Under the pieces are notes generated by a model. That model was not told the origin of the DNA, did not search any database, and saw only the letters and a program-made list of their open reading frames with translations. A stretch of 64,000 nt of DNA from Octopus sinensis (taxonomy: Eukaryota), in contig NC_042998.1 in NCBI RefSeq assembly GCF_006345805.1, positions 61,318,001 to 61,382,000 on the forward strand, in the 5' to 3' direction. This document shows, piece by piece, positions 1-62,269 of this stretch (positions within the stretch are counted from its first letter, which is position 1; every line of letters starts with the position of its first letter). Made by a program: the position numbers and the translations under genes.

Positions 1-1032
1 TGTATCTTAGCTTCATCCATTCGGTCATGTCATTCTCCACCTCTCTTTCAAGTCATTGTTCTTATCCTCCTTTTCTTGTAACTTTCACTCCCTACATCCT
101 CATTATTCTTCCGTTATCACTTAACCTTATCACTTTCTCAACATGTCTTCATGATTGTAAAAACACATCAAAGAGCAATGAGAATTGTATAATATTATAA
201 GATGCAAGACCACCTGACCAGTGCTAGCACTATGAGGAAATGGCCCCAGTACACACTTGAAAGTGATTGATAAATGAGAGGAGACAGCATAATTTTGAGT
301 GGAACGTTCAATCTAATTGTGGACATTGGATTCTGATGCTGCCCATCAGCTTGTCGGCTCTGGTCAAACTGTCTAACCCAGCCAGCATGGACAATGGTGA
401 TGATGACAATCTTATTAGTGCCTGTGTTACTATAAAACATACCCAAGAGACTTTATAAAATGGTTGCTGTTAAGATGGTATCTTATCATAGAAAATCCAG
501 AGTATTTAAGAGTGATGTGTGGCTACCTCAAGAAGTGAAAGTGGATGTTAAGTCTGAATAAGAACTGGCTTGGACATTGATGACCCATCTAATCGACGGG
601 AGCATGGAAGCAGATGATGAATGATAATGACATTATCATTAACTTTTTTGTATTTATTATTTTGCATCTTGCAGCCTGTATATAATCTTTAGGACTTGAA
701 ACTTACACCTGTGTAGCAGGGTCTGACTTACAGAAACTGTCGTGTGATGTTATTGTTAATATAAGATCAACATCAAAAAGAACATCTAATCTCATTCATG
801 TTACTACTGTTTTACTACATTTGTCACTGATATTAATTAAGACCAACTATTTACAAAAGGTCACAGTAATGCTTCATATAATATATATAAATAGTATCAT
901 AAATATACAGAAATATTTAACATTTTATTTTAGGACACAATAACATCTGAACCTTATTGGACTATAGGAGTCAATAATGTCAGTTTGTTGAGAAGTGGTT
1001 GTGTGCACAAGAAAAACAGTAGAATTACTTAC

Positions 1033-1055
1033 ACAGATGGTAATAAAGTTTAAAT
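1033..1055 (-). other. Candidate 23-nt micro-exon, one per unit
   Basis: catctactctcatccaacag|ATTTAAACTTTATTACCATCTGT|gtaagt. Length and both splice sites are kept in the diverged copies near 36850 and 38400. Confidence 0.35.
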
Positions 1056-1551
1056 CTGTTGGATGAGAGTAGATGATGCTGTTATAAAATCAGGTTAAAT
1101 TTCAGACGTACAAATGTAAATCAATAAATGAATAATATCTGATTCATTACATGATTCATGTTAACAGTTTGTATATGTAATACAAAAAAAATACTGTCTG
1201 ACATTGCAATACTAGATATCTATATAAATTGTATATATTCTGAGTAAAAAATAAGTGACTTTCATTACAGTGAATATGATTATGTCTCAGCACAGATCTA
1301 TATTGTAGAAGTTCCATCATCATCGTTATCATCATCATGATTGTTGTCGTCAAGTAATATCTGCTTTCCATGCTGACATGTATTGGACGGTCTGACTGAG
1401 AGCTGGCAAGCCAGAAGTTTGCACCAGTCTCCAAACTGATCTGACATGTGTGCATATATATGTAAACATACATATACATGCATACATATATATGCATATA
1501 TATACAGACATATACATACACAAATATATCACAGTGAAAGTATTAACTCAC

Positions 1552-1593
1552 ATTACAATGGCGATTCTATTGTTTCACTTTTGACAAGTAATA
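1552..1593 (-). CDS. Candidate 42-nt terminal-coding exon (phase 1: VLLVKSETIESPL-stop), one per unit; representative copy
   Basis: ctcttatctcttacactatttcag|TATTACTTGTC...CCATTGTAAT|gtgagt, with a strong pyrimidine tract and consensus donor. The phase-1 frame stops at its last full codon. Confidence 0.4.
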
Positions 1594-1629
1594 CTGAAAT
1601 AGTGTAAGAGATAAGAGATTGCTCTTAGA

Positions 1630-1815
1630 ACACATTAGGCAAGAAGTTGAAAATTTGTTTGGCCCATGACACTGCATGGACCTGAAGTGAGGCATGTGTG
1701 AAATTTGTATGAAATCAGCTGGGTAGTTCTCGAGTTTTAGTGATGCACACATACATACAGACACACATTTACATGCACACATACATGCATTCTCAGTAAT
1801 ATATATATATATATA
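1630..1815 (-). mobile_element. Fragment of a non-autonomous Helitron-like interspersed repeat embedded in each unit
   Basis: Minus strand (TA)n-ctgagaatg-(TGTA/TG)n-catcactaaaactcgagaactacccagctgatttcatacaaatttcacac resembles the 5' ends of invertebrate non-autonomous Helitron-type elements. Confidence 0.4.
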
Positions 1816-1846
1816 TCTTTATATAGACTATAAAACATATTCTAAC

Positions 1847-1954
1847 CTGAGATATTCTGGGAAGATAATCCAGCGAGAAATAATATAGCATATCACATAT
1901 TAGACTACCGTAAAAATCTGACAACCTCATAAGATGATCAATCAAGAAGAACTT
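1847..1954 (-). other. Candidate 108-nt exon-like segment (KFFLIDHLMRLSDFYGSLICDMLYYFSLDYLPRISQ), one per unit
   Basis: ctctag|...CAG|gttaga and open in phase 0. The diverged copy at 39247-39354 has the same length, a CAG acceptor and is also open. Confidence 0.3.
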
Positions 1955-2407
1955 CTAGAGAACGATTTTATAAACAAAGGAAATTATCTTTAACAATTTT
2001 CACCACTTAAAAATATTTCCAGTTCAGATTTGTTATTTAATCTCCTACATTAGAAAGCTGAGAATGATGTTCTTATAAGTACTTTTGACTTTAATTATCA
2101 GTTTCCCAAGATGTTAATAACATCATTAATCATCACTGTTGGCTGGCAACTGACAGTCACTCAGTCTTGTCATTCTCCAACTCTCTTTCAAATCACCATT
2201 ATTATCCTCGTTTTCTCACAACTTTCACTCCCTGCATCCTCATTATTCTTCTGTCATCACTTCTCAATGTGTCACCTTGAATGAAAGAACATATCATAAG
2301 AGCAGTAAGAACTGTCTAATTTTATGGGACGCAAGAAAAACTGACCAATGCTAGTCCTCAAGGGAAAACTTATAGAAATCAATTTAGTACTTTAGTTTTA
2401 TACTCAC

Positions 2408-2443
2408 CGACTGGCGCTTCATTTCCATCCCGCATGTGTGGGT
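2408..2443 (-). CDS. Candidate 36-nt phase-1/phase-1 micro-exon (DPHMRDGNEAPV), one per repeat unit; representative copy
   Basis: Minus strand reads gaatttcag|ACCCACACATGCGGGATGGAAATGAAGCGCCAGTCG|gtgagt. It is a GC-rich island in AT-rich flanks and is open in phase 1. Other copies have lowest coordinate 5150, 7891, 10633, 13374, 16116, 18858, 21597 (donor damaged), 24336, 27080, 29819 and ~32546 (degraded). Confidence 0.55.
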
Positions 2444-5400
2444 CTGAAATTCATAATTTCAAGTGTTATAATTTATAGTAAAATTTACCTGCATACACAT
2501 TCACACAAAAAGCTATAATTATTAATCTAAACTTTTACCAATTAAAGACATTAACAGCAACACTGACCAAATGATTTCACAGTTAGACTTTCTAAAGTTT
2601 GTTCAGATTTTGTGATTGAGCCTCATACTTTACCAAAGCCAAATTTGATGTTCCAGTAGATAACACTGTCTTTGATAATTGGATTCTTAAGATGTTAGTA
2701 AATCATTAACCATCTCACAAATAATTGTATCTTAGCTTCATCCATTCGGTCATGTCATTCTCCACCTCTCTTTCAAGTCATTGTTCTTATCATCCTTTTC
2801 TTGTAACTTTCACTCCCTACATCCTCATTATTCTTCCGTTATCACTTAAACTTATCACTTTCTCAACATGTCTTCATGATTGTAAAAACACATCAGAGAG
2901 CAATGAGAATTGTATCATATTATGAGATGCAAATAACATGACCAGTGCTAGCACTATGAGGAAATGGCCCCAGTACACATTTGAAAGTGATTGATAAATG
3001 AGAGGAGACAGCATAATTTTCTGTGGAACTTTCAATCTAATTGTGGACATTGGATTCTGATGCTGCCCATCAGCTTGTCGGCTCTGGTCAAACTGTCTAA
3101 CCCAGGCCATCATGGACAATGGACGTAAAATGATGATGATGATGATGACAATCTTATTAGTGCCTGTGTTACAATAAAACATACCCAAGAGACTTTATAA
3201 AATGGTTGCTGTTAAGATGGTATCTTGTCATAGAAAATCCAGAGTATTTAAGAGAGATGTGTGGCTACCTCAAGCAGTCAAAGTGGATGTTAAGTCTGAA
3301 TAAGAACTGGCTTGGATATTGATGACCCATCTAATCGGCGGGAGCATGGAAGCAGATGATGAATGATAATGACATTATCATTTATTTTTTTGTATTTATT
3401 ATTTTGCATCTTGCAGCCTGTATATAATCTTTAGGACTTGAAACTTACACCTGTGTAGCAGGGTCTGACTTACAGAAACTGTCGTGTGATGTTATTGTTA
3501 ATATAAGATCAACATCAAAAAGAGCATCTAATCTCATTCATGTTACTACTGTTTTACTACATTTGTCACTGATATTAATTAAGACCAACTATTTACAAAA
3601 GGTCACAGTAATGCTTCATATAATATATCTAAATAGTATCATAAATATACAGAAATATTTAACATTTTATTTTAGGACACAATAACATCTGAACCTTATT
3701 GGACTATAGGAGTCAATAATGTCAGTTTGTTGAGAAGTGGTTGTGTGCACAAGAAAAACAGTAGAATTACTTACACAGATGGTAATAAAGTTTAAATCTG
3801 TTGGATGAGAGTAGATGATGCTGTTATAAAATCAGGTTAAATTTCAGACGTACAAATGTAAATCAATAAATGAATAATATCTGATTCATTACATGATTCA
3901 TGTTAACAGTTTGTATATGTAATACAAAAAAAATACTGTCTGACATTGCAATACTAGATATCTATATAAATTGTATATATTCTGAGTAAAAAATAAGTGA
4001 CTTTCATTACAGTGAATATGATTATGTCTCAGCACAGATCTATATTGTAGAAGTTCCATCATCATCGTTATCATCATCATGATTGTTGTCGTCAATTAAT
4101 ATCTGCTTTCCATGCTGACATGTATTGGACGGTCTGACTGAGAGCTGGCAAGCCAGAAGTTTGCACCAGTCTCCAAACTGATCTGACATGTGTGCATATA
4201 TATGTAAACATACATATACATACATACATATATATGCATATATATACAGACATATACATACACAAATATATCACAGTGAAAGTATTAACTCACATTACAA
4301 TGGCGATTCTATTGTTTCACTTTTGACAAGTAATACTGAAATAGTGTAAGAGATAAGAGATTGCTCTTAGAACACATTAGGCAAGAAGTTGAAAATTTGT
4401 TTGGCCCATGACACTGCATGGACCTGAAGTGAGGCATGTGTGAAATTTGTATGAAATCAGCTGGGTAGTTCTCGAGTTTTAGTGATGCACACATACATAC
4501 AGACACACATTTACATGCACACATACATGCATTCTCAGTAATATATATATATATATATCTTTATATAGACTATAAAACATATTCTAACCTGAGATATTCT
4601 GGGAAGATAATCCAGCGAGAAATAATATAGCATATCACATATTAGACTACCGTAAAAATCTGACAACCTCATAAGATGATCAATCAAGAAGAACTTCTAG
4701 AGAACGATTTTATAAACAAAGGAAATTATCTTTAACAATTTTCACCACTTAAAAATATTTCCAGTTCAGATTTGTTATTTAATCTCCTACATTAGAAAGC
4801 TGAGAATGATGTTCTTATAAGTACTTTTGACTTTAATTATCAGTTTCCCAAGATGTTAATAACATCATTAATCATCACTGTTGGCTGGCAACTGACAGTC
4901 ACTCAGTCTTGTCATTCTCCAACTCTCTTTCAAATCACCATTATTATCCTCGTTTTCTCACAACTTTCACTCCCTGCATCCTCATTATTCTTCTGTCATC
5001 ACTTCTCAATGTGTCACCTTGAATGAAAGAACATATCATAAGAGCAGTAAGAACTGTCTAATTTTATGGGACGCAAGAAAAACTGACCAATGCTAGTCCT
5101 CAAGGGAAAACTTATAGAAATCAATTTAGTACTTTAGTTTTATACTCACCGACTGGCGCTTCATTTCCATCCCGCATGTGTGGGTCTGAAATTCATAATT
5201 TCAAGTGTTATAATTTATAGTAAAATTTACCTGCATACACATTCACACAAAAAGCTATAATTATTAATCTAAACTTTTACCAATTAAAGACATTAACAGC
5301 AACACTGACCAAATGATTTCACAGTTAGACTTTCTAAAGTTTGTTCAGATTTTGTGATTGAGCCTCATACTTTACCAAAGCCAAATTTGATGTTCCAGTA

Positions 5401-8400
5401 GATAACACTGTCTTTGATAATTGGATTCTTAAGATGTTAGTAAATCATTAACCATCTCACAAATAATTGTATCTTAGCTTCATCCATTCGGTCATGTCAT
5501 TCTCCACCTCTCTTTCAAGTCATTGTTCTTATCATCCTTTTCTTGTAACTTTCACTCCCTACATCCTCATTATTCTTCCGTTATCACTTAAACTTATCAC
5601 TTTCTCAACATGTCTTCATGATTGTAAAAACACATCAGAGAGCAATGAGAATTGTATCATATTATGAGATGCAAATAACATGACCAGTGCTAGCACTATG
5701 AGGAAATGGCCCCAGTACACATTTGAAAGTGATTGATAAATGAGAGGAGACAGCATAATTTTCTGTGGAACTTCAATCTAATTGTGGATATTGGATTCTG
5801 ATGCTGCCCATCAGCTTGTCGGCTCTGGTCAAACTGTCTAACCCAGGCCAGCATGGACAGTGGACGTAAAATGATGATGATGATGATGACAATCTTATTA
5901 GTGCCTGTGTTACAATAAAACATACCCAAGAGACTTTATAAAATGGTTGCTGTTAAGATGGTATCTTGTCATAGAAAATCCAGAGTATTTAAGAGAGATG
6001 TGTGGCTACCTCAAGCAGTCAAAGTGGATGTTAAGTCTGAATAAGAACTGGCTTGGATATTGATGACCCATCTAATCGACGGGAGCATGGAAGCAGATGA
6101 TGAATGATAATGACATTATCATTTATTTTTTTGTATTTATTATTTTGCATCTTGCAGCCTGTATATAATCTTTAGGACTTGAAACTTACACCTGTGTAGC
6201 AGGGTCTGACTTACAGAAACTGTCGTGTGATGTTATTGTTAATATAAGATCAACATCAAAAAGAGCATCTAATCTCATTCATGTTACTACTGTTTTACTA
6301 CATTTGTCACTGATATTAATTAAGACCAACTATTTACAAAACGTCACAGTAATGCTTCATATAATATATCTAAATAGTATCATAAATATACAGAAATATT
6401 TAACATTTTATTTTAGGACACAATAACATCTGAACCTTATTGGACTATAGGAGTCAATAATGTCAGTTTGTTGAGAAGTGGTTGTGTGCACAAGAAAAAC
6501 AGTAGAATTACTTACACAGATGGTAATAAAGTTTAAATCTGTTGGATGAGAGTAGATGATGCTGTTATAAAATCAGGTTAAATTTCAGACGTACAAATGT
6601 AAATCAATAAATGAATAATATCTGATTCATTACATGATTCATGTTAACAGTTTGTATATGTAATACAAAAAAAATACTGTCTGACATTGCAATACTAGAT
6701 ATCTATATAAATTGTATATATTCTGAGTAAAAAATAAGTGACTTTCATTACAGTGAATATGATTATGTCTCAGCACAGATCTATATTGTAGAAGTTCCAT
6801 CATCATCGTTATCATCATCATGATTGTTGTCGTCAATTAATATCTGCTTTCCATGCTGACATGTATTGGACGGTCTGACTGAGAGCTGGCAAGCCAGAAG
6901 TTTGCACCAGTCTCCAAACTGATCTGACATGTGTGCATATATATGTAAACATACATATACATACATACATATATATGCATATATATACAGACATATACAT
7001 ACACAAATATATCACAGTGAAAGTATTAACTCACATTACAATGGCGATTCTATTGTTTCACTTTTGACAAGTAATACTGAAATAGTGTAAGAGATAAGAG
7101 ATTGCTCTTAGAACACATTAGGCAAGAAGTTGAAAATTTGTTTGGCCCATGACACTGCATGGACCTGAAGTGAGGCATGTGTGAAATTTGTATGAAATCA
7201 GCTGGGTAGTTCTCGAGTTTTAGTGATGCACACATACATACAGACACACATTTACATGCACACATACATGCATTCTCAGTAATATATATATATATATATC
7301 TTTATATAGACTATAAAACATATTCTAACCTGAGATATTCTGGGAAGATAATCCAGCGAGAAATAATATAGCATATCACATATTAGACTACCGTAAAAAT
7401 CTGACAACCTCATAAGATGATCAATCAAGAAGAACTTCTAGAGAACGATTTTATAAACAAAGGAAATTATCTTTAACAATTTTCACCACTTAAAAATATT
7501 TCCAGTTCAGATTTGTTATTTAATCTCCTACATTAGAAAGCTGAGAATGATGTTCTTATAAGTACTTTTGACTTTAATTATCAGTTTCCCAAGATGTTAA
7601 TAACATCATTAATCATCACTGTTGGCTGGCAACTGACAGTCACTCAGTCTTGTCATTCTCCAACTCTCTTTCAAATCACCATTATTATCCTCGTTTTCTC
7701 ACAACTTTCACTCCCTGCATCCTCATTATTCTTCTGTCATCACTTCTCAATGTGTCACCTTGAATGAAAGAACATATCATAAGAGCAGTAAGAACTGTCT
7801 AATTTTATGGGACGCAAGAAAAACTGACCAATGCTAGTCCTCAAGGGAAAACTTATAGAAATCAATTTAGTACTTTAGTTTTATACTCACCGACTGGCGC
7901 TTCATTTCCATCCCGCATGTGTGGGTCTGAAATTCATAATTTCAAGTGTTATAATTTATAGTAAAATTTACCTGCATACACATTCACACAAAAAGCTATA
8001 ATTATTAATCTAAACTTTTACCAATTAAAGACATTAACAGCAACACTGACCAAATGATTTCACAGTTAGACTTTCTAAAGTTTGTTCAGATTTTGTGATT
8101 GAGCCTCATACTTTACCAAAGCCAAATTTGATGTTCCAGTAGATAACACTGTCTTTGATAATTGGATTCTTAAGATGTTAGTAAATCATTAACCATCTCA
8201 CAAATAATTGTATCTTAGCTTCATCCATTCGGTCATGTCATTCTCCACCTCTCTTTCAAGTCATTGTTCTTATCATCCTTTTCTTGTAACTTTCACTCCC
8301 TACATCCTCATTATTCTTCCGTTATCACTTAAACTTATCACTTTCTCAACATGTCTTCATGATTGTAAAAACACATCAGAGAGCAATGAGAATTGTATCA

Positions 8401-11400
8401 TATTATGAGATGCAAATAACATGACCAGTGCTAGCACTATGAGGAAATGGCCCCAGTACACATTTGAAAGTGATTGATAAATGAGAGGAGACAGCATAAT
8501 TTTCTGTGGAACGTTCAATCTAATTGTGGATATTGGATTCTGATGCTGCCCATCAGCTTGTCGGCTCTGGTCAAACTGTCTAACCCAGGCCAGCATGGAC
8601 AGTGGACGTAAAATGATGATGATGATGATGACAATCTTATTAGTGCCTGTGTTACAATAAAACATACCCAAGAGACTTTATAAAATGGTTGCTGTTAAGA
8701 TGGTATCTTGTCATAGAAAATCCAGAGTATTTAAGAGAGATGTGTGGCTACCTCAAGCAGTCAAAGTGGATGTTAAGTCTGAATAAGAACTGGCTTGGAT
8801 ATTGATGACCCATCTAATCGACGGGAGCATGGAAGCAGATGATGAATGATAATGACATTATCATTTATTTTTTTGTATTTATTATTTTGCATCTTGCAGC
8901 CTGTATATAATCTTTAGGACTTGAAACTTACACCTGTGTAGCAGGGTCTGACTTACAGAAACTGTCGTGTGATGTTATTGTTAATATAAGATCAACATCA
9001 AAAAGAGCATCTAATCTCATTCATGTTACTACTGTTTTACTACATTTGTCACTGATATTAATTAAGACCAACTATTTACAAAACGTCACAGTAATGCTTC
9101 ATATAATATATCTAAATAGTATCATAAATATACAGAAATATTTAACATTTTATTTTAGGACACAATAACATCTGAACCTTATTGGACTATAGGAGTCAAT
9201 AATGTCAGTTTGTTGAGAAGTGGTTGTGTGCACAAGAAAAACAGTAGAATTACTTACACAGATGGTAATAAAGTTTAAATCTGTTGGATGAGAGTAGATG
9301 ATGCTGTTATAAAATCAGGTTAAATTTCAGACGTACAAATGTAAATCAATAAATGAATAATATCTGATTCATTACATGATTCATGTTAACAGTTTGTATA
9401 TGTAATACAAAAAAAATACTGTCTGACATTGCAATACTAGATATCTATATAAATTGTATATATTCTGAGTAAAAAATAAGTGACTTTCATTACAGTGAAT
9501 ATGATTATGTCTCAGCACAGATCTATATTGTAGAAGTTCCATCATCATCGTTATCATCATCATGATTGTTGTCGTCAATTAATATCTGCTTTCCATGCTG
9601 ACATGTATTGGACGGTCTGACTGAGAGCTGGCAAGCCAGAAGTTTGCACCAGTCTCCAAACTGATCTGACATGTGTGCATATATATGTAAACATACATAT
9701 ACATACATACATATATATGCATATATATACAGACATATACATACACAAATATATCACAGTGAAAGTATTAACTCACATTACAATGGCGATTCTATTGTTT
9801 CACTTTTGACAAGTAATACTGAAATAGTGTAAGAGATAAGAGATTGCTCTTAGAACACATTAGGCAAGAAGTTGAAAATTTGTTTGGCCCATGACACTGC
9901 ATGGACCTGAAGTGAGGCATGTGTGAAATTTGTATGAAATCAGCTGGGTAGTTCTCGAGTTTTAGTGATGCACACATACATACAGACACACATTTACATG
10001 CACACATACATGCATTCTCAGTAATATATATATATATATATCTTTATATAGACTATAAAACATATTCTAACCTGAGATATTCTGGGAAGATAATCCAGCG
10101 AGAAATAATATAGCATATCACATATTAGACTACCGTAAAAATCTGACAACCTCATAAGATGATCAATCAAGAAGAACTTCTAGAGAACGATTTTATAAAC
10201 AAAGGAAATTATCTTTAACAATTTTCACCACTTAAAAATATTTCCAGTTCAGATTTGTTATTTAATCTCCTACATTAGAAAGCTGAGAATGATGTTCTTA
10301 TAAGTACTTTTGACTTTAATTATCAGTTTCCCAAGATGTTAATAACATCATTAATCATCACTGTTGGCTGGCAACTGACAGTCACTCAGTCTTGTCATTC
10401 TCCAACTCTCTTTCAAATCACCATTATTATCCTCGTTTTCTCACAACTTTCACTCCCTGCATCCTCATTATTCTTCTGTCATCACTTCTCAATGTGTCAC
10501 CTTGAATGAAAGAACATATCATAAGAGCAGTAAGAACTGTCTAATTTTATGGGACGCAAGAAAAACTGACCAATGCTAGTCCTCAAGGGAAAACTTATAG
10601 AAATCAATTTAGTACTTTAGTTTTATACTCACCGACTGGCGCTTCATTTCCATCCCGCATGTGTGGGTCTGAAATTCATAATTTCAAGTGTTATAATTTA
10701 TAGTAAAATTTACCTGCATACACATTCACACAAAAAGCTATAATTATTAATCTAAACTTTTACCAATTAAAGACATTAACAGCAACACTGACCAAATGAT
10801 TTCACAGTTAGACTTTCTAAAGTTTGTTCAGATTTTGTGATTGAGCCTCATACTTTACCAAAGCCAAATTTGATGTTCCAGTAGATAACACTGTCTTTGA
10901 TAATTGGATTCTTAAGATGTTAGTAAATCATTAACCATCTCACAAATAATTGTATCTTAGCTTCATCCATTCGGTCATGTCATTCTCCACCTCTCTTTCA
11001 AGTCATTGTTCTTATCATCCTTTTCTTGTAACTTTCACTCCCTACATCCTCATTATTCTTCCGTTATCACTTAAACTTATCACTTTCTCAACATGTCTTC
11101 ATGATTGTAAAAACACATCAGAGAGCAATGAGAATTGTATCATATTATGAGATGCAAATAACATGACCAGTGCTAGCACTATGAGGAAATGGCCCCAGTA
11201 CACATTTGAAAGTGATTGATAAATGAGAGGAGACAGCATAATTTTCTGTGGAACGTTCAATCTAATTGTGGATATTGGATTCTGATGCTGCCCATCAGCT
11301 TGTCGGCTCTGGTCAAACTGTCTAACCCAGGCCAGCATGGACAGTGGACGTAAAATGATGATGATGATGATGACAATCTTATTAGTGCCTGTGTTACAAT

Positions 11401-29400: not shown

Positions 29401-32400
29401 TTAACAATTTTCACCACTTAAAAATATTTCCAGTTCAGATTTGTTATTTAATCTCCTACATTAGAAAGCTGAGAATGATGTTCTTATAAGTACTTTTGAC
29501 TTTAATTATCAGTTTCCCAAGATGTTAATAACATCATTAATCATCACTGTTGGCTGGCAACTGACAGTCACTCAGTCTTGTCATTCTCCAACTCTCTTTC
29601 AAATCACCATTATTATCCTCGTTTTCTCACAACTTTCACTCCCTGCATCCTCATTATTCTTCTGTCATCACTTCTCAATGTGTCACCTTGAATGAAAGAA
29701 CATATCATAAGAGCAGTAAGAACTGTCTAATTTTATGGGACGCAAGAAAAACTGACCAATGCTAGTCCTCAAGGGAAAACTTATAGAAATCAATTTAGTA
29801 CTTTAGTTTTATACTCACCGACTGGCGCTTCATTTCCATCCCGCATGTGTGGGTCTGAAATTCATAATTTCAAGTGTTATAATTTATAGTAAAATTTACC
29901 TGCATACACATTCACACAAAAAAGCTATAATTATTAATCTAAACTTTTACCAATTAAAGACATTAACAGCAACACTGACCAAATGATTTCACAGTTAGAC
30001 TTTCTAAAGTTTGTTCAGATTTTGTGATTGAGCCTCATACTTTACCAAAGCCAAATTTGATGTTCCAGTAGATAACACTGTCTTTGATAATTGGATTCTT
30101 AAGATGTTAGTAAATCATTAACCATCTCACAAATAATTGTATCTTAGCTTCATCCATTCGGTCATGTCATTCTCCACCTCTCTTTCAAGTCATTGTTCTT
30201 ATCATCCTTTTCTTGTAACTTTCACTCCCTACATCCTCATTATTCTTCCGTTATCACTTAAACTTATCACTTTCTCAACATGTCTTCATGATTGTAAAAA
30301 CACATCAGAGAGCAATGAGAATTGTATCATATTATGAGATGCAAATAACATGACCAGTGCTAGCACTATGAGGAAATGGCCCCAGTACACATTTGAAAGT
30401 GATTGATAAATGAGAGGAGACAGCATAATTTTCTGTGGAACGTTCAATCTAATTGTGGATATTGGATTCTGATGCTGCCCATCAGCTTGTCGGCTCTGGT
30501 CAAACTGTCTAACCCAGGCCAGCATGGACAGTGGACGTAAAATGATGATGATGATGATGACAATCTTATTAGTGCCTGTGTTACAATAAAACATACCCAA
30601 GAGACTTTATAAAATGGTTGCTGTTAAGATGGTATCTTGTCATAGAAAATCCAGAGTATTTAAGAGAGATGTGTGGCTACCTCAAGCAGTCAAAGTGGAT
30701 GTTAAGTGAATAAGAACTGGCTTGGATATTGATGACCCATCTAATCGACGGGAGCATGGAAGCAGATGATGAATGATAATGACATTATCATTTATTTTTT
30801 TGTATTTATTATTTTGCATCTTGCAGCCTGTATATAATCTTTAGGACTTGAAACTTACACCTGTGTAGCAGGGTCTGACTTACAGAAACTGTCGTGTGAT
30901 GTTATTGTTAATATAAGATCAACATCAAAAAGAACATCTAATCTCATTCATGTTACTACTGTTTTACTACATTTGTCACTGATATTAATTAAGACCAACT
31001 ATTTACAAAAGGTCACAGTAATGCTTCATATAATATATCTAAATAGTATCATAAATATACAGAAATATTTAACATTTTATTTAGGACACAATAACATCTG
31101 AACCTTATTGGACTATAGGAGTCAATAATGTCAGTTTTTGAGAAGTGGTTGTGTGCACAAGAAAAACAGTAGAATTACTTACACAGATGGTAATAAAGTT
31201 TAAATCTGTTGGATGAGAGTAGATGATGCTGTTATAAAATCAGGTTAAATTTCAGACGTACAAATGTAAATCAATAAATGAATAATATCTGATTCATTAC
31301 ATGATTATGTTAACAGTTTGTATATGTAATACAAAAAAAATACTGTCTGACATTGCAATACTAGATATCTATATAAATGTATATATTCTGAGTAAAAAAT
31401 AAGTGACTTTATTACAGTGAATATGATTATGTCTCAGCACAGATCTATATGTAGAAGTTCCATCATCATCGTTATCATCATCATGATTGTTGTCGTCAAT
31501 TAAATCTGCTTCCATGCTGACATGTATTGGACGTCTGACTGAGAGCTGGCAAGCCAGAAGTTTGCACCAGTCTCCAAACTGATCTGACATGTGTGCATAT
31601 ATATGTAAACATACATATACATGCATACATATATATGCATATATATACAGACATATACATACACAAATATATCAACAGTGAAAGTATTAACTCACATTAC
31701 AATGCGATTCTATTGTTTCACTTTTGAAAGTAATACTGAAATAGTGTAAGAGATAAGAGATTGCTCTTAGAACACATTAGCAAAGAAGTTGAAAATTTGT
31801 TTGGCCCATGACACTGCATGGACCTGAAGTAAGGCATGTGTGAAATTGTATGAAATCAGCTGGGTAGTTCTCGAGTTTTAGTGATGGCACACATACATAC
31901 AGAACACATTTACATGCACACATACATGCATTCTCAGATATATATATATATATATAATATATCTTTATATAGACTATAAAAAATTCTAACCTGAGATATT
32001 CTGGGAAGATAATCCAGCGAGAAGATAATATAGAAATGATATAGCCTACGAATATTAGACTACCGTAAAAATCTGACAACCTCATAAGATGATCAATCAA
32101 GAAGAACTTCTAGAGAACGATTTAATAAACAAAGGAAATTATCTTTAACAATTTCACCACTTAAAAATTTCCAGTTCAGATTGTTATTTAATCTCCTACA
32201 TTAGAAAGCTGAGAATGATGTCTTATAAGTACTTTTGACTTTAATTATCAGTTCCAAGATGTTAATAACATCATTAATCATCAGTGGCTGGCACCCTGAC
32301 AGTCACTCAGTCTTGTCATTCTCCAACTCTCTTTAAAATCCCATTATATCCTCGTTTCTCACAACTTCACTCCCTGCATCCTCATTATTCTTCTGTCATC

Positions 32401-34812
32401 ACTTTCAATGTGTCACCTTGAATGAAAAACATATCATAAGAGCAGTAAGAACTGTCTACTTTATGGGACGCAAGAAAAAAAGAAAAATGCAATGTACCTC
32501 AAGGGAAACTTATAGAAATCAATTTAGTACTTTAGTTTATACCACCAATGGCGCTTCATTCCATTTACCGCTGTGGGGGGTCTGAAATTCCTTAATCAAG
32601 TGTTATAATTTATAGTAAAAATTTACCTGCATACACATTCACACAAAAGCTATAATTATTAATCTAAACTTTTACCAATTAAGGACATTAACGCAACAGC
32701 AACACTGACCAATGATTTCAGAGTTTCAGCAGATGTCGCTTTCTAAATTTTGTTCAGATTTGTGATTTGAGCCTCATACTTTACCAAGGCCAGTTTGATG
32801 TTTCCGTAGAAACAAACACTGTCTTTGATATTGGATTCTTAAGATGTTAGTAAATCATTAAACCATCTCACAATAATTGTATCTTAGCTTCATTTGAGAG
32901 GCAAATAACATGGACCAGGGCTAGCACTAGAGGAAAGGCACCAGTTACACACTTGAAGTGATTGATAAATGAGAGGAGACAGCATTAATGTTTTCTGTTG
33001 GAAAGTTACAAATAGAATATTGTGTTACAATGGTTCTGATGATGCCAATCAGATTGTACGGCTATGGTCAAAAACTGGATTAACCTAGGCAAGCATGGAA
33101 AATTGGTATTCTTCCGTTATCACTTAAACTTATCACTTTCTCAACATGTCTTCATGATTGTAAAAACACATCAGAGAGCAATGAGAATTGTATCATATTA
33201 TGAGATGCAAATAACATGACCAGTGCTAGCACTATGAGGAAATGGCCCCAGTAGTACACATTGAAAGTGATTGATAAATGAGAGGAGACAGCATAATTTT
33301 CTGTGGAACGTTCAATCTAATTGTGGATATTGGATTCTGATGCTGCCCATCAGCTTGTCGGCTCTGGTCAAACTGTCTAACCCAGGCCAGCATGGACAGT
33401 GGACGTAAAATGATGATGATGATGATGACAATCTTATTAGTGCCTGTGTTACAATAAAACATACCCAAGAGACTTTATAAAATGGTTGCTGTTAAGATGG
33501 TATCTTGTCATAGAAAATCCAGAGTATTTAAGAGAGATGTGTGGCTACCTCAAGCAGTCAAAGTGGATGTTAAGTCTGAATAAGACTGGCTTGGATATTG
33601 ATGACCCATCTAATCGACGGGGAGCATGGAAGCAGATGATGAATGATAATGACATTATCATTTATTTTTTTGTATTTATTATTTTGCATCTTGCAGCCTG
33701 TATATAATCTTTAGGACTTGAAACTTACACCTGTGTAGCAGGGTCTGACTTACAGAAACTGTCGTGTGATGTTATTGTTAATATAAGATCAACATCAAAG
33801 AATACTAATCCCATTCACTTTACAAACTTTACTACATTTGTCACTGATATTAATTAAACCAACTATTTACAAAAGGTCACAGTAATGCTTTATATAATAT
33901 ATCTAAATAGTATCATAAATATACAGAAATATTTAACATTTTTTTTTAGGACACAATAACATCTGAACTTATTGGACTATAGGAGTCAATAATGTCACAA
34001 GACAAACAGTAGAATTATTTACACAGCTTGTAATAAGGTTTTAAATCTGTTGGGTGAGGGTAGAAGATAATGCTCTGACAACATAAGGTTAACAACTGTT
34101 CATACATACAAATGTACATCATGTTATGACTAATATCTGATTCATTACCATGTTAACAGTTTGTATATGTGATACAAACTGAAAAACACCGTCTGACAAT
34201 TGCAAACTAGATATCTGGTATACAATTGATGATATCATTCGACCTAAAAAATAAGTGACTTTCATTACCAGTGAACTGATATTATTTCTCAGCACAGATC
34301 TATATTATAGTAGTTCCATCATCATCGTTATCATCAATCATTATCGTCAGTCGCCGTTTAATGTAACTGTCTATTTTTCCATGCTGGCATGGATTGGACG
34401 GTCTGACTGGGAGCTGGACAAGCCGGAGTTTGCACCAGTCCCCAAACTGATCTTAATATGTATGCATAGATATGTAACATAAATATACATGCATTCATAT
34501 ATATAAATATTTATACAGACATATACATACAAAATATATCTAGTGGAAAGTATGTAACTCACATTACACATATCAGATTTTATTGTTTCACATTTGACAA
34601 GTAAACTGAAATAGTGTAGAGATAAGAGATTGCTAACAGGATCACATTAGGCAAGAAGTTGAAAAATTTGTTGGGCCCATGACATTGCATGGACCTTAAG
34701 TAAAGCATGTGTGAATATGTATGAAAGCAGTGGGTAATTCTTTAGTTTTAGTGATACACACATACGACAGACAGTCAGACACACATTTACACGCACACAA
34801 ACATGCATTCTC

Positions 34813-34855
<43 letters not shown>

Positions 34856-35456
34856 GTATCTATATACACTATAATACACATTCTAACCTGAGACATTATG
34901 GGAAGATACTCCGGTGAGAGATGATATCTCATATCAAACATCAGACTACTGTCTGACATCTTCATAAGATTGAAAATCTGACATCTTCATAAGATTGAAA
35001 ATCAAGAAGAACTTCTGGAGAATGATTTTGTAAACAAACGAAATTATCTTTAACAATTTTTACCAGTAGAAAAAGGTTTCAGTTGAGATTTGTTATTGAA
35101 TCTCCTACATTAGAAAGCTGAGAATGAATTCTTATAAGTACTTTTGACTTGAATTATCACTCTCACAAGATGTTAATACGTCATCTCTTGAGGCTCACAA
35201 CTGACAGTCACTCAGTCTTGTCATTCTCCAACTCTCTTTCAAATCACCATTCTTATCCTGGTTTCTCACAACTTTCACTCCCTGCATCCTCATTATTCTT
35301 CAGTCAATATTCTCAAAGTGTCACCTTGAATGAAAGACAATATCATAAGAGCAGTAAGAACTGTGTAATTTTATGGGACGCAAGAAAAACTGACCAATGC
35401 TAGTCCCAAGGGAAAACTTATAGAAATTGATTTGGTACTTTCAGTGTTATTCTCAC

Positions 35457-35514
35457 CATGATAGATTGATGCATTTTCAACTGGTGGACCTGGCTGTTCA
35501 TTTTAGATATAAAA
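35457..35514 (-). CDS. Variant micro-exon at the 36-nt exon position (58 nt as assembled; ...NEQPGPPVENASIYH)
   Basis: It has the same flanks as the 36-nt exon (gaatttcag acceptor, gtgag donor) but a different interior. It would be an open 57-nt phase-1/1 exon (LYLNEQPGPPVENASIYH) if one A in an AAAA run is an error. NEQP aligns with NEAP. Confidence 0.4.
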
Positions 35515-38243
35515 CTGAAATTCATACTTTTAAGTGTTATAATTTATAGTAAAATTTACCTGCATACACATTCACACAAAAAGCTATAATTATTAATCTA
35601 AACTTTTACCATTTACGAACTTTCACAGCAACACTGACCAAATGATTTCACAGTGAGTCTTTCTAATGTTTGTTCAGATTTTGTGATTGAGCCTCATACT
35701 TTACCAAAGCCAACATTGATGTTCTAGTAGATAACACTGTCTTTGATTATTGGATTCTCAAGATGTTAGTAAATCATTAACCATCTCACAAATAATTGTA
35801 TCTTAGCTTCATCCATTCGGTCATGTCATTCTCCATCTCTCTTTCAAGTCATTGTTCTTATCCTCATTTTCTTGTAACTTTCACTCCCTACATCCTCATT
35901 ATTCTTCCATTATCACTTAAACTTATCACTTTCTCAACATGCCTTCATGATTGTAAAAACACATCAAAGAGCAATGAGAATTGTATAATATTATGAGATG
36001 CAAGACAACTTGACCAGTGCTAGCACTATGAGGAAATGGCCCCAGTACACACATGAATGTGATTGGTGAATGAGAGGAGACAGCATATTTTTCTGTGGAA
36101 CGTTCAATCTAATTGTGGATATTGGAGTCTGGTGCTGCCCCACAGCTTGCCAGCTCTGGTCAAACTGTCCAACCCAGGCCAGCATGAGCAATGGACGTAA
36201 AATGCTGATGATGATGATGACAATCTTATTAGTGCCTGTGTTACAATAAAACATACACAAGAGACTTTATAAAATGGTTGCTGTTAATATGGTATCTTGT
36301 CATAGAAAATCCAGAGTATTTAAGAGAGATTTGTGGCTACCTCAAGCAGTCAAAGTAGATGTTAACTCTGAATAAGAACTGGCTTGAACATTGATGACCC
36401 ATCTAATCGACGGGAGCATGGAAGCAGATGATGAATGATAATGACGTTATCATTTAAGTTTTTGTATTTATTATTTTGCATCTTGCAGCCTGTATCTAAT
36501 CTTTAGGACTTGGAACTTACACCTGTGTAGCAGGGTCTGACTGACAGAAACTGTCGTGTGATGTTATTGGTAATATAATATCAACATCAAAAAGAACATC
36601 TAATCCCATTCATGTTACTACTGTTTTACTACATTTGTCACTGATATTAATTAAGACCAACTATTTACAAAAGGTCACAGTAATGCTTTATATAATATAT
36701 CTAAATAGTATCATAAATATACAGAAATATTTAACATTTTATTTTTGGACACAATAACGTCTGAACCTTGTTGGACTATAGGCGTCAATAATGTCAGTTT
36801 GTAGAGAAGTGGTTGTGTGCACAAGAAAAACAGTAGAATTACTTACACAGATGGTAATAAGGTTTAAATCTGTTGGATGAGAGTAGATGATGCTTTTATA
36901 AAATCAGGTTAAATTTCAGACATACAAATGTAAATCAATAAATGAATAATATCTGATTCATTACATGAATATCTGATTCATTACATGATTCTTGTTAACA
37001 GTTTGTATATGTAATACAAAAAAAATACTGTCTGACATTGCAATACTAGATATCTATATAAATTGTATATATTCTGAGTAAAAAATAAGTGACTTTCATT
37101 ACAGTGAACATGATTATATCTCAGCACAGATCTATATTGTAGAAGTTCCATCATCATCGTTATCATCATCATGATTGTTGTCGTCAATTAATATCTGCTT
37201 TCCATGCTGACATGTATTGGACGGTCTGACTGAGAGCTGGCAAGCCAGAAGGTTGCACCAGTCTCCAAACTGATCTGACATGTGTGCATATATATGTAAA
37301 CATACATATACATGCATACATATATATGCATATATATACAGACATATACATACACAAATATATCACAGTGAAAGTATTAACTCACATTACAATGGCGATT
37401 CTATTGTTTCACTTTTGACAAGTAATACTGAAATAGTGTAAGAGATAAGAGATTGCTCCAAGAACACATTAAGCAAGAAGTTGAAAATTTGTTTGGCCCA
37501 TGACACTGCATGGACCTGAAGTAAGGCATGTGTGAAATTTGTATGAAATCAGCTGGGTAGTTCTCGAGTTTTAGTGATGCACACATACATACAGACACAC
37601 ATTTACATGCACACATACATGCATTCTCAGTAATATATATATATATATATATATCTTTATATAGACTAGAAAACATATTCTAACCTGAGATATTCTGGGA
37701 AGATAATCCAGCAAGAAATAATATAGCATATCACATATTAGACTACCGTAAAAATCTGACAACTTCATAAGATGATCAATCAAGAAGAACTTCTAGAGAA
37801 CGATTTTGTACACAAAAGAAGTTATCTTTAACAATTTTTACCACTTAAAAACATTTCCAGTTGAGATCTGTTATTGAATCTCCTACATTAGAAAGCTGAG
37901 AATGATGTTCTTATAAGTACTTTTGACTTTAATTATCAGTTTCCCAAGATGTTAATACATCATTAATCATCACTGTTGGCTGGCAACTGACAGTCACTCA
38001 GTCTTTTCATTCTCCAACTCTCTTTCAAATCACCATTATTATCCTCGTTTTCTCACAACTTTCACTCCCTGTATCCTCATTATTCTTCTGTCATCACTCT
38101 CAATGTGTCACCTTGAATGAAAGAACATATCATAAGAGCAGTAAGAACTGTCTAATTTTATGGGATGCAAGAAAAACTGACCAATGCTAGTCCCCAATGG
38201 AAAACTTATAGAAATCGATCTGGTACATCAGTTTTAAACTCAC

Positions 38244-38309
38244 CATTTCTAACATAATGATAAAGTTGATCAACATTCTGAAGTCTTAATGAGGGATGGC
38301 GTTGATGAT
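38244..38309 (-). CDS. Candidate 66-nt phase-1/phase-1 exon (DHQRHPSLRLQNVDQLYHYVRN), possible first tail exon of the GPCR
   Basis: caacttactag|ATCATC...GAAATG|gtgagt, open in phase 1. The donor-side intron is homologous to that of the 36-nt exons. Confidence 0.5.
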
Positions 38310-39140
38310 CTAGTAAGTTGGTCAATAATCCCAGTTTGCATGAAAGTGGTTTTGTGCCGAAGAAAAACAGTAGAATTACTTACACAAATGTTAATAATGT
38401 TTAAATCTGTTGGGTGAGGTTAGAAGATGATGCTATGACAAAATAAGTTTAAATTTCAGACATACCAACGTAAATCAATTAATGAATAATATCTTATTCA
38501 TTCTCATGTTAACACCTTGTATATGCAATACAAAAATCACTCTCTGACATTGCAATACTAGATATCTATAGAAATTGTATATAATCTGACTACAAAATAA
38601 GTGACTTTCATTACAATGAATATGATTATGTCTCAGCAGAGATCTATATTGTAGAAGTTCTATCATTATCATCATCATCATTTTTATCATCATCATCGTC
38701 GTTTAATATCTGCTTCCCATGCTGAGTCCTGACGGAGCGCTTGCAAGCCAGAAGTCTGCACCAGGCTGCAATCTGATCTGATATGTATGCATATATATGT
38801 AAACATACATTACATGCATACATATATATAAATATATATACAGAAATATACATACACAAATATATCACAGTGAAAGTATTAACTCACATTACAATAGCGA
38901 TTTTATTGTTTCACATTTGACAAGTAATAATGAAATAGTGTAAGAGATAAGAGATTGCTACAGGATCACATTAGGCAAGAAGTTGAAAATTTGTTTGGCC
39001 CATGACACTGCATGGACCCTAAGTAAGGCATGTTTAAAATTTGAATGAAATCAGCTGGGTAGTTCTCGAGTTTTAGTGATGCACACATACATACAGAGAG
39101 ACAGACACACATTTACACACACACATACATGCATTCTCAG

Positions 39141-39141
<1 letters not shown>

Positions 39142-39216
<75 letters not shown>
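39142..39216. repeat. (TA)n microsatellite
   Basis: Pure TA run, longer than the homologous runs in the other units. Confidence 0.95.
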
Positions 39217-39218
<2 letters not shown>

Positions 39219-39975
39219 TTATATAGACTATAATACATTTTCTAACCTGAGATATTCTGGGAAGATACTCCGGTGAGAGATGATATCTCATATCACACAT
39301 CAAACTACTGTAAATATCTGACATCTTCATAAGATGATAAATCAAGAAGAACTTCTGGAGAATGATTTTTTTAAACAAAGGAAATTATCTTTAACAATTT
39401 TTACCACTTAAAATCATTTCCAGTTGAGATTTGTTATTGAATCTCCTACATCAGGAAGCTGAGAATGATGTCCTTATAAGTACTTTTGACTTTAATTATC
39501 AGTTTCCCAAGATGTTAATACATCATTAATCATCTCTGTTGGCTCCCAACTGATAGTCATTCAGAACACTGACTTGGACATTGATGACCCATCTAATCAA
39601 TGGGAGCATGGAAGCAGATGATGAATAATAATGACACTATCGTTTATTATTATGTATTTATTATTTTGCATCTTGCAGCCTGTATCTAATCTTGAAGACA
39701 GAAAGAGAATGCTAACCTTAGGAGCAAACCAAAGTTTGATACTTTGATATGAAGATATGTTTAATGTATTTTATTGATTTACAATAAGTGAAAAAAACAG
39801 GGTGGTCACACTTGGGACACTTTTTATCATAAGTCTGTCAGATTACAAAAGATATCAAGCTACAGAACAACAACAATAATAAGCTATCAGTAAACCGAGT
39901 AAAAATTTAAAATAAAGAAAAATATTGTCATTAACTCACCTGTAAAACTAAGCAGAAATATTGTCATTAACTCAC

Positions 39976-40049
39976 CTGTTTAACCAACATAATAAGATAT
40001 TTCCCTCTTTAGGTCCAATATTCTAATTTATCCATATTACCAACTGTAT
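39976..40049 (-). other. Candidate 74-nt exon; phase 1 reads DTVGNMDKLEYWT-stop
   Basis: ctgttggtag acceptor and CAG|gtgagt donor. The donor region is locally duplicated at ~39920-39942. Confidence 0.3.
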
Positions 40050-40317
40050 CTACCAACAGTAGATACTTTATGAGATTTCAGTAATATTGGCTTCGAATTT
40101 TGGCACAAAACCAACAATTTCAGGCCAGTGGGTAAGTCGTTTTCATTGACCCCACATACATAAATGCAAACAGAGATACACATTTGTACCTGCACACAGA
40201 CGCACACACACACGTACACACACAAACACACCCGCACACATGCACACACACACACACCACCCATCCACACTCACACACACGCATACACCCACACCCACAC
40301 CCACACATACATACACA

Positions 40318-40570
40318 CATGTTTATACCTGTAATTATTGGGGCACTGGAATATGTAACACACTGCATAAATACCAATCTTGAGAAATTGGGCTTCTCAA
40401 AACCAGAAAGGAGAAAACTGATTCAAATCTTTAGATCCACTGGAACTGTTAAAATCTATAAAACTTTCCAGAGGTTTATTGTCTAAATTTATATGAGCAT
40501 GTCTAAATATGTGACTAATATGTATGAAAATGCATACATAAAACAAAACACACAAATCTGCATGTATACT
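40318..40570 (+). mobile_element. 3' fragment of an RLE-type non-LTR retrotransposon
   Basis: FIPVIIGALEYVTHC...GTVKIYKTF is homologous to the C-terminus of the 50093 ORF and to the 60150-60395 fragment. It is followed by a (TACA)n tail. Confidence 0.75.
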
Positions 40571-40619
40571 TACATACATACATACATACACTCATACACA
40601 CACACACTCAAACAAACAA

Positions 40620-40657
<38 letters not shown>

Positions 40658-40959
40658 GTACGTTGGTGCAAACAGGAAAGATAGAACTCAAAGTATGAGT
40701 ATATGTATATTTTACACCCCCACACACACACCCATGCACAAACACACATGCACGCACACATTCACGCACACACAGATGCACACGAACACACACACATGCA
40801 CACACAGTAGAGTTGGTATGTATGATGATGTCTATCCTAAGGTGGTGTCGATAGTGGTTGTGTCAGTAGATGTGATGTTTGTGGCTATCCTCATCTTAAC
40901 ACTATTGGCGCTGATTCTGATGATGGTAAGAATAAAAAAAACTCCTTAATTGCACTTAC

Positions 40960-41291
40960 CTTCCTCTCGATTGCATATGAGATTTCTGATATATTTGTAG
41001 TCTATACAGTAAAATATGAAGATAAGGAGACTTTGTAAAATGTTGAATATACCGAAAAGCTTGTCAAACAATTCGACTGAATCATAAAAAGCTAAGAATG
41101 CTAATAACCATAACAATCTGAACAGGAACAATAGGTAAAACAGACAAATGAAGCTACAGAAATTTGTTCTATAATCTTCCTTTCCGTGTTTATGTTTCTG
41201 TGTATGAAAACTGAAGATAATTTGGAAGATGCACACGATCAGCACAGGAGTCAGGAAAGTAATGTAAAATGATGTCTTGGATAACCAACAG
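40960..41291 (-). CDS. Adhesion/secretin-class GPCR exon: ECL2 CWL, TM5-TM7 and start of the C-tail
   Basis: tttgtag|C TGT TGG TTA: CWLSKTSFYITFLTPVLIV...LLWLLAFL...LFGIFNILQSLLIFIFYC matches the family-B CWL and N-x-L-Q-G-x-x-IF motifs. The phase-2 start fits the previous exon. It ends GAA G|gtaagt (phase 1); read-through stops at 40946. Confidence 0.88.
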
Positions 41292-44400: not shown

Positions 44401-45730
44401 CCAGTCCATGTATCCATCCATCCATCCAGTCAATCCATCTATCCATCCAGTTGATCCATCCTTTCATCCACACATCAATGCAGTCCATCCATCCATCCAT
44501 CTAGTCAATCCATCATTCCATCCATCCATCTGCTCCATCCATGAAGCCATCTATCCATCTGCTCCATCCATCCAACCAGCTAGCCATCCATATGTCCATC
44601 CATCCATCAATCCAACCATCCATCTGGTCCCTCCATCCATCCATACATCCATCTATCCATCCATCTGGTCTATCCATCCATCTATCCATCCATCTGGTCC
44701 ATCAATCCAAACATCCACAAATCCAGCCATCCACCCGGACCATCCATCCATCCTGTCCATCCACCCATCCATTCATTCAACCAGCCAGTCCATCGATCGA
44801 TCCAGTCAATCCAACCCTCCATCCACTCATCAATCCGGTCAATCAATCCATCCATCCATCGATCCATCAATCCACTCATCCATCTGGTCCATAGATCAAT
44901 CCATTCCATCCCTCCATCCATCCACACATCCATCTGGTCCATCCATCCATCCAATCCATGCTGTCCATCTCTCCATCCATCTATCCATCCAGCCATCCAA
45001 CCGGTCAATCCATCCATCATGTCCATCTATCCATGAGTCCATCCGGTCCATCCATCCATCCAGCTAGCCATCCATTTGTCCATCCATCCATCTGGTCTAT
45101 CCATCCATCCAATCCATCCATCCATTCACACATTCATCCATTCATCTGTCCATCCATCCATGCATCCCCCCATCCATCCGGTCCATGTATCCATCCAATG
45201 CATCTGTTCCATCCATCCATCCATGTATCCATCTATCTAGTATATCCATCAAACCATCCATCCATCTACTCCATCCATCCGTCCATCCACCCATCCATCT
45301 GGTCCATCCGTCCATCCATCCATTCATCAATCCATACATTCCATCCATCCATCAACCAATCCATCTTGTCCATCCATCCGTCCAATCATACAGCCACCTA
45401 TGCATCCATTCATACATCCATCCATCCGTCCATCCATCCATCCATCTGGTGCATCCATCCTTTCATCCATCTATCCAGTCCATCCATCCATCCACACATC
45501 TATCTGGTCAATCCATCCATCCAGTCCATCCATCTATCCATCCAGTCCATCCATACATCAATCCACCCATTCATCCATCTATCTGGTCCATCCCTCCATC
45601 CATCCATGAATCCTTCCATCCATCCATCTATCCAGTCCATCCATGCATCCATCTGCCCATCCAGCTATCCATCTATTCCCTCCATCCATCCATCCATCCA
45701 TCTATCCATATGCCCACCTACCCACCTGAC
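41470..45730. repeat. Degenerate (CCAT)n satellite tract of about 4.3 kb in a GPCR intron
   Basis: Continuous ccatccat with recurring ccatctggtccat and ccagtcc variants. It generates the spurious HPSI/MDGW ORFs. Confidence 0.97.
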
Positions 45731-54760: not shown

Positions 54761-54902
54761 CCCAGGCCAAAATTGAACTCACGATCATAAAATATTTTTC
54801 GTTCAGTTCCAAATTTTTATAATCTGTATAATCATGAAAAGCTTCGATACCCATCCACATGACAGTTGCTGTAAGGGAGTAGTGTAACAGAGCAGCCACA
54901 GC
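54761..54902 (-). CDS. GPCR exon: TM3-ICL2-TM4 (AVAALLHYSLTATVMWMGIEAF...SSILAWG)
   Basis: ttcaag acceptor and G|gtaggt donor, 142 nt, phase 0 to 1. Contains the adhesion-GPCR LLHY...WM-x-x-E motif. Confidence 0.9.
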
Positions 54903-57874: not shown

Positions 57875-57998
57875 CTTACAAGCAGTTGTTATTTTTAAGG
57901 CATAAGGGTGCATCCCGATGAGGAAGATGATATTAACAACACTTAAAGAAATGCACTGGCATATCAAAATCTTTGAAGACAAACATTTCCGCAGTTCT
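57875..57998 (-). CDS. GPCR exon: ICL1-TM2-ECL1 (ELRKCLSSKILICQCISLSVVNIIFLIGMHPYALKITTACK)
   Basis: ttattcag acceptor and AAG|gtaagt donor, 124 nt, phase 2 to 0. Ends at the conserved TM3-proximal Cys. Confidence 0.9.
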
Positions 57999-62172: not shown

Positions 62173-62269
62173 TTGATATAACCATAAAAGATTGCTGTAA
62201 GAATGTGTAAGACTAATGATATTCCACAGCTAATGTGAGACAAACAAATAAGTGTTGCTCGGGGGCATC
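62173..62269 (-). CDS. GPCR exon: TM1 (LSHISCGISLVLHILTAIFYGYIK)
   Basis: ctgtttcag acceptor and AA|gtaagc donor, 97 nt, ending in phase 2 to match the next exon. Contains the family-B C-G-I-S-L TM1 motif. Upstream GAIN/GPS exons were not identified in the window. Confidence 0.85.

Follow-up and report, generated by a model that had tools for sequence, protein, structure and literature searches.

The gene and tandem array described here lie in a stretch of 64,000 nucleotides (nt) of Octopus sinensis DNA (NCBI RefSeq assembly GCF_006345805.1, contig NC_042998.1, positions 61,318,001 to 61,382,000 of the forward strand), which was analyzed as a whole, is referred to below as the window, and is numbered from its first letter. 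The array, with a unit of ~2.74 kilobases (kb), is hosted by LOC115224769, a gene on the minus strand whose exon for transmembrane (TM) helices 5 to 7 is 100% identical to the RefSeq protein XP_029651540.2 of 1566 amino acids (aa). The domain order of this protein, with leucine-rich repeats (LRR) followed by GPS/GAIN and 7tm_2, places it among the adhesion G protein-coupled receptors (GPCRs; class B2). Its GPS, encoded by exons outside the window, scores 50.1 bits in Pfam against a cut-off of 22.5, its secretin-type seven-transmembrane (7TM) region scores 47.2 bits with 7tm_2, and its ectodomain contains 12 LRR_8 stretches and is thus long and adhesive in type. The window contains every 7TM exon, and each aligns to the homologue in Octopus bimaculoides:

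62173..62269, minus strand: TM1 exon, 97 nt; one base short of frame relative to the O. bimaculoides homologue and omitted by the RefSeq model
57875..57998, minus strand: TM2 exon, 124 nt; 7tm_2 match with E 0.006; omitted by the RefSeq model
54761..54902, minus strand: TM3-4 exon; 100% identical to XP_029651540.2
51692..51755, minus strand: short exon after TM4 (extracellular loop 2, ECL2)
40960..41291, minus strand: TM5-7 exon; phase-1 donor G/gtaagt; 100% identical to XP_029651540.2

As a preliminary description of this DNA, made from the letters alone, had stated, the TM5-7 exon (41291-40960) ends in phase 1 at GAA G/gtaagt, with the slash marking the splice junction. Reading through past this donor gives GKCN and then a stop at 40948-40946. 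Downstream on the same strand lie the array and a set of short exons, all but one of which are located within its units:

39976..40049, minus strand: 74-nt candidate exon with in-frame stop; off the array exon position and absent from the RefSeq model
38244..38309, minus strand: 66-nt phase-1/1 exon, the first linker exon, in a diverged unit; 22/22 residues in XP_029651540.2
35457..35514, minus strand: 58-nt exon, one base over a symmetric 57 nt; like two 19-aa RefSeq repeats that come after the array, 9/19
32894..39699, no strand assigned: diverged array units, ~80-95% identical to the consensus unit, containing the 58- and 66-nt exons
32546..32581, minus strand: 36-nt copy broken by a stop and a damaged donor; unit rich in indels
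1..32893, no strand assigned: homogeneous array, 12 units of ~2.74 kb, of which 11 clean units are 98.8-100% identical by substitutions
29819..29854, minus strand: first clean 36-nt phase-1/1 exon, DPHMRDGNEAPV; ten more follow, one per unit
2408..2443, minus strand: final 36-nt exon before the window start, with a unit that becomes diverged in that direction

Unit lengths in the array range from 2727 to 2744 base pairs (bp), self-identity at an offset of one unit is 99.2%, and the mean identity of the 11 clean units by substitutions is 99.7%. Beyond the homogeneous part, two to three diverged copies extend to ~39700, and in the last unit of the window 20 of 24 substitutions fall in the final three of 11 bins, a divergence towards position 1 that fits the array ending there. 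The locus has both homogenised units with diverged edges and a tandem genomic unit with a frame-symmetric exon, two features of an exon-intron coding variable number tandem repeat (VNTR). An array of RNA genes (5S, small nuclear RNA, or transfer RNA [tRNA]) was ruled out, as a scan of the unit against Rfam gave 15 matches, all of them microRNA models far below the gathering score and 14 of them on one AT-rich repeat, and a tRNA search of positions 1-33000 returned none.

Because several units are identical by substitutions, and because the upstream edge of the array is rich in 1-2-nt indels (one unit has 62 short indels and 25 substitutions, and clean units have up to 9 short indels) and looks like unpolished long-read consensus, it could be argued that the exons are real while most of the homogeneous 12-fold array was created in assembly, with a true copy number much lower or much higher. 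We consider this very unlikely. Substitutions are common to blocks of adjacent units, with 5 upstream units set against 6 downstream units at one column, for example, and the edge units have variants in common with the diverged flanking units, patterns that a copied consensus would not yield and that argue for a real array. Block sharing of this kind is also the trace that unequal crossing-over and conversion would leave.

The preliminary description had proposed that these short exons could be chained onto the receptor, and most of the parts on which it relied are recovered. The 66-nt exon is symmetric as described, being open in phase 1 between tag and gtgagt sites, and reads DHQRHPSLRLQNVDQLYHYVRN. 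About 12 copies of the 36-nt exon had been counted; in 11 of the 12 units the exon is open and identical in sequence (acceptors at 29854, 27115, 24371, 21632, 18893, 16151, 13409, 10668, 7926, 5185, and 2443), whereas the twelfth (32581) has a stop and a damaged donor. The gtgagt donor ascribed to these copies is likewise present in 10 of the 11 clean ones, whereas the copy at 21632 has gtgtat. The 58-nt variant, which had been offered as a further link, cannot serve in the chain as assembled: it is asymmetric (58 mod 3 = 1), reads VLYLK-stop after the 66-nt exon, and would end translation there. A one-base deletion near its start opens the frame, and the 58 single-base deletions tried lead to three distinct readings. 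The 12-mer encoded by the 36-nt exon is without Ser or Thr, and the spacer is acidic.

The 74-nt candidate reads DTVGNMDKLEYWT-stop, with the stop after 13 residues. It was rejected as an array exon on the basis of a flank identity to the unit of only 0.34-0.65 and of its comparison with the 66-nt exon (p 0.22). A 36-bp tandem duplication at 39908-39979 copies its donor, resulting in two G/gtgagt sites at 39976 and 39940.

When these exons are placed in the context of the annotated protein, the chain from the 7TM region through REE and the 66-nt peptide into (DPHMRDGNEAPV)n is found exactly in XP_029651540.2, where the 12-mer occurs 11 times, as often as clean copies occur in the window. The proposed chain is thus not hidden, being already predicted in RefSeq. 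As a RefSeq prediction, the 7TM-66-nt-(36-nt)n chain is plausible; to our knowledge, gene predictors rarely join micro-exons 2.7 kb apart without spliced alignments. The view of the repeats as a free C-terminal tail has to be given up. After the 11 12-mers, XP_029651540.2 continues with two 19-residue repeats and a final 39 aa, all encoded beyond the window, and the protein runs past its repeats into a death-domain-like segment, so that the repeats form a linker. The last 39 aa align to the death domain of the O. bimaculoides homologue with a score reached by 0 of 5000 shuffles, and the stretch from TM7 to the death domain comprises 192 aa of repeats unrelated to the linker of that homologue.

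By best match, the closest homologue is O. bimaculoides XP_014788728.1 / XP_052821851.1 / A0A0L8FLR8, with 81% identity across the ectodomain after the LRR. Its C-terminal part is a death domain (Pfam Death 27.6-28.8 bits, cut-off 22.6), and its linker between TM7 and the death domain consists of ~14 QSTSQ-type pentamers over 101-105 aa. In the accessible parts of the published work, Ocbimv22014869m / A0A0L8FLR8 is, among the octopus-specific adhesion GPCRs of group 3, the one described with a death domain (Ritschard et al. 2019, PMC6408891), and the accessible supplement lists it as skin-specific with a tau of 0.96 (skin 0.71, sucker 0.17, and ten other tissues at 0.04 or below; PMC6408891 supplement). 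The same paper, as far as its accessible text extends, gives the death domain one clause and leaves a linker array unmentioned (Ritschard et al. 2019, PMC6408891). This group 3 receptor and the O. sinensis gene are alike in combining LRR-GPS-7tm_2 with a repeat-rich linker before a death domain, a likely one in O. sinensis, whereas the linkers themselves are unlike, with Ser/Thr/Gln pentamers in O. bimaculoides and, in O. sinensis, an acidic 12-mer that lacks Ser and Thr and whose exon occurs once in each 2.74-kb unit. The two species further differ in the length of the LRR ectodomain, as the last LRR_8 region and the GPS lie ~70 residues later in XP_029651540.2 than in the O. bimaculoides record P0006, so that both ends of the receptor apparently vary in repeat number.

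Whether the array codes for protein was approached by comparing its exons with chance expectation. Open, symmetric phase-1 exons ending in G/GTRAGT were counted in Markov-simulated units and in the non-array part of the window. The simulation yielded them in 10 of 500 units, and the non-array sequence, 22.6 kb x 2 strands (~45 kb), contained one. As the array copies are not independent and count only once, the resulting p of ~0.02-0.06 gives modest support. A chance of 2-6% per unit would also fit an array of intronic or downstream satellite-like DNA carrying a copied, chance splice-like site, in which case the receptor would end at the stop reached by read-through or within the 74-nt exon and the RefSeq chain would be artefactual; paralogues P0003-P0005 and P0009 are annotated with short tails after TM7, and the tail was found in no independent protein. 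We nevertheless regard such a non-coding array as distinctly unlikely, given that one unit position is taken by three distinct exon bodies (66, 58, and 36 nt) with the donor kept, that the 58-nt body resembles both the homologue's linker ahead of the death domain and the downstream 19-mers, that a long linker and a death domain are present in the closest homologue, and that the unit contains no Rfam family at gathering score and no tRNA.

The pattern of conservation around the exon position illustrates the first of these points. Compared with the clean unit by global alignment, the exon bodies are only 24% (66 nt) and 29% (58 nt) identical. Over the 60 nt that follow the donor, identity rises to 87% for the 66-nt exon and 90% for the 58-nt exon; over the 60 nt that precede the acceptor, it is 62% and 97%, respectively. 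The sole G/GTRAGT site of the unit is that of the 36-nt exon, on the strand of the gene. At the peptide level, linker pieces were compared in 21 pairs by shuffle tests, with an X standing for the break in the 58-nt exon. The 58-nt peptide matches the two RefSeq 19-mers at 9/19 (p 3e-5; 3 of 100000 shuffles) and 8/19 (p 1.3e-4) and the homologue's residues just ahead of the death domain with p 0.0025 (5 of 2000 shuffles); the only other significant pair is that of the two 19-mers with each other. These matches tie the 57-nt type to a coding linker that is conserved; the 36-nt type is connected with the 57-nt type by its position and by a weak DNA match (p 0.018).

Several observations weigh against reading these exons as a spliced linker. 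The RefSeq model that contains the chain is imperfect, omitting TM1-TM2 where the window has a frameshift, and it yields no Pfam Death match, because the first ~20 residues of the death domain are missing from it. In the assembly, the 58-nt exon is broken, as is one of the 36-nt copies. Run as a sliding window, the exon-position comparison is weaker, with the exon window within the lowest 5.7% of its noisy unit, and the identity of the 11 exon copies is uninformative because only 0.5 differences would be expected. The 36- and 66-nt peptides have no significant similarity to other linker pieces (p at least 0.10 in all such pairs among the 21 tests), and similarity at the DNA level is weak (p 0.018 for 58 versus 36 nt; p 0.06 for 66 versus 58 nt). 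Residues 1325-1566 of XP_029651540.2, compared with shorter proteins, gave one unrelated plant match (E 3.4) among 7997 scored candidates. A search of the 267-aa tail against 1.84 billion representatives gave, in the best 150 of 222 matches, the O. bimaculoides homologue as the only recognised relative; the other 149, four of which were inspected individually, look like periodic-repeat matches and are without any of the seven tail motifs checked.

The O. bimaculoides tail (residues 1040-1283) gave only its self-match among 6285 candidates of similar length. An Atlas search returned only generic 7tm_2 clusters, below 0.9, and a search of metagenome contigs with the 36-nt exon gave 0 matches. 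Of 24 sequencing runs listed, 20 contain part of the TM5-7 exon (best share 0.48), with no RNA run listed among them; this counts neither for nor against splicing.

The frameshift at TM1 raises a further alternative. Relative to the homologue, the TM1 exon starts in frame 0 (DAPEQHLFV vs DVEQPSFV) and continues in frame 2 (SHISCGIS vs SHVSCGIS), so that the TM1 and TM2 exons, 221 nt together, contain a frame change inside TM1 as assembled; it is probably because of this frameshift that the RefSeq model leaves out TM1-TM2 and presents a five-helix receptor. It can be hypothesized that the gene is decaying, with true lesions in TM1 (the frameshift), in the 58-nt exon, in one 36-nt copy, and in the death domain (a truncation) and with the array as neutral DNA amplified in a gene that no longer makes a full receptor. 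In line with such decay, RefSeq omits both exons and has a partial death domain, the TM5-7 exon is only 68% identical to the O. bimaculoides homologue with small deletions in its inner loops, and the intron just upstream of the 58-nt exon is free of short indels, so that the extra base in this exon need not be noise. Against it, the 7TM exons are stop-free over ~250 codons, the frameshift aside, and because single-base indel noise in the assembly is heavy, as in the unit with 62 short indels and 25 substitutions, assembly error may explain why the 32581 copy, the 58-nt exon, and TM1 are broken. On balance, decay of the gene appears unlikely.

Taken together, the organization of the locus suggests, with a probability that we would put at roughly 60%, that an exon-plus-intron tandem repeat provides short phase-1 exons that are spliced in series into a spacer between the last TM helix and a C-terminal death domain. 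An ancestral linker exon of the 57-nt type, located ahead of the death-domain exons, may have been duplicated together with its flanking intron. Divergence of the exon bodies would then have given rise to types of 66, 57, and 36 nt, with the splice sites and a large part of the intron retained, and the 36-nt unit could have been amplified recently by unequal crossing-over and gene conversion. Every unit would add 12 residues of a predicted-disordered, low-complexity tether from the membrane to the death domain, which in turn would recruit death-domain adaptors in a pathway of skin or sucker sensing or of immunity. From the domain content, it is conceivable that LRR-based sensing at the skin is coupled to death-domain adaptors as well as to G proteins. 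As the two species have unrelated repeats at this site, the length of the spacer probably matters more than its sequence.

A more far-reaching version of this reading can be offered only tentatively. In it, the gene encodes an intact skin receptor that joins a Toll-like receptor-like LRR sensor, an adhesion 7TM region, and a death domain, with a tether set in 12-residue steps by copy number and exon skipping; unrelated tethers would have evolved in the two octopus species, and tether length would be a selected, polymorphic control of signalling from GPCR to death domain.

Apart from the array, the introns of the gene contain several repeats and remnants of mobile elements. A degenerate (CCAT)n microsatellite of 4.2 kb and ~1000 copies occupies 41478-45709, as part of the intron before the TM5-7 exon. 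Remnants of long interspersed nuclear elements (LINEs) lie at 47700-49750 (minus strand) and 60690-61454 (plus strand), with broken reverse-transcriptase frames (Pfam RVT_1) and a similar LINE-like C-terminal frame with C2H2 zinc-finger matches, and a broken mariner-type transposase (Pfam Transposase_1, E 1e-19) lies at 62616-63217 (plus strand) in the intron upstream of TM1. At 50075-50824 (plus strand), a frame of 249 aa with CCHC-like and endonuclease-like motifs has no Pfam match; we take it to resemble the end of a site-specific non-LTR (long terminal repeat) retroelement. Similar to it is the translated C-terminus of a repeat pair at 40325-40563 and 60148-60394, the two copies of which are inverted and 79% identical.

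The proposed architecture can be compared with systems in which protein length depends on repeated or alternative exons. In the SmPoMuc genes of Schistosoma mansoni, a 27-bp micro-exon and its introns are repeated in tandem as units of ~1 kb in up to ~20 copies (Roger et al. 2008, PMC2576457). The accessible part of that paper further describes repeats that are >93% identical by concerted evolution, different exon types within conserved introns, and a repeat number that varies in transcripts (PMC2576457). The octopus locus shares with SmPoMuc the micro-exon-plus-intron tandem repeat and the homogenised units, whereas the SmPoMuc products are mucins with glycosylated repeats and the octopus repeat, known from one assembly, is predicted to be cytoplasmic, between the 7TM region and the death domain. 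A multi-kilobase intragenic repeat unit is likewise found in LPA, where the kringle IV type 2 (KIV-2) unit encodes a folded extracellular kringle domain, unlike the octopus unit, which encodes a 12-residue predicted intracellular spacer. The LPA unit spans 5.6 kb, and its copy number sets protein length, giving >40 isoforms, according to the accessible text (PMC6314250). By analogy, copy-number variation between animals and exon skipping would be expected for the octopus gene.

Among GPCRs, the C-terminal tails of latrophilins are spliced, and splicing of the LPHN2 tail is reported to affect signalling, in the accessible portions of the two papers considered (PMC12236479; for latrophilin tail splicing, also PMC10830413). 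Latrophilins and the exon-3 VNTR of DRD4 resemble the octopus gene in that splicing or repeat number alters an intracellular region of the receptor, and differ from it in that neither is an exon-plus-intron array, latrophilins using distinct exons and DRD4 a repeat within one exon. The DRD4 VNTR is positioned in a loop, and we know of no death domain in either latrophilins or DRD4. A search of the open-access literature, with subscription papers and preprint supplements outside its coverage, found no description of a micro-exon-plus-intron array in a receptor tail. The term "death domain" has 0 occurrences in the first 300,000 of the 412,533 characters of a 2026 adhesion-GPCR review (PMC13197933), and the accessible part of a paper on sponge immune receptors contains no 7TM-death-domain fusion (PMC6208332).

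The surprise in these findings is limited by the fact that the predicted protein is already in RefSeq and that the homologue's death domain was noted in 2019. If the exons are spliced as proposed, a cytoplasmic GPCR linker would be built by a micro-exon-plus-intron tandem array, a design described for SmPoMuc mucins and LPA. The linker would represent a fast-evolving site of the receptor, with unrelated repeats in two species. As the repeats can be counted by polymerase chain reaction, they may offer a simple handle on the tuning of linker length in an unstudied 7TM-death-domain receptor, the homologue of which is expressed in octopus skin and suckers.

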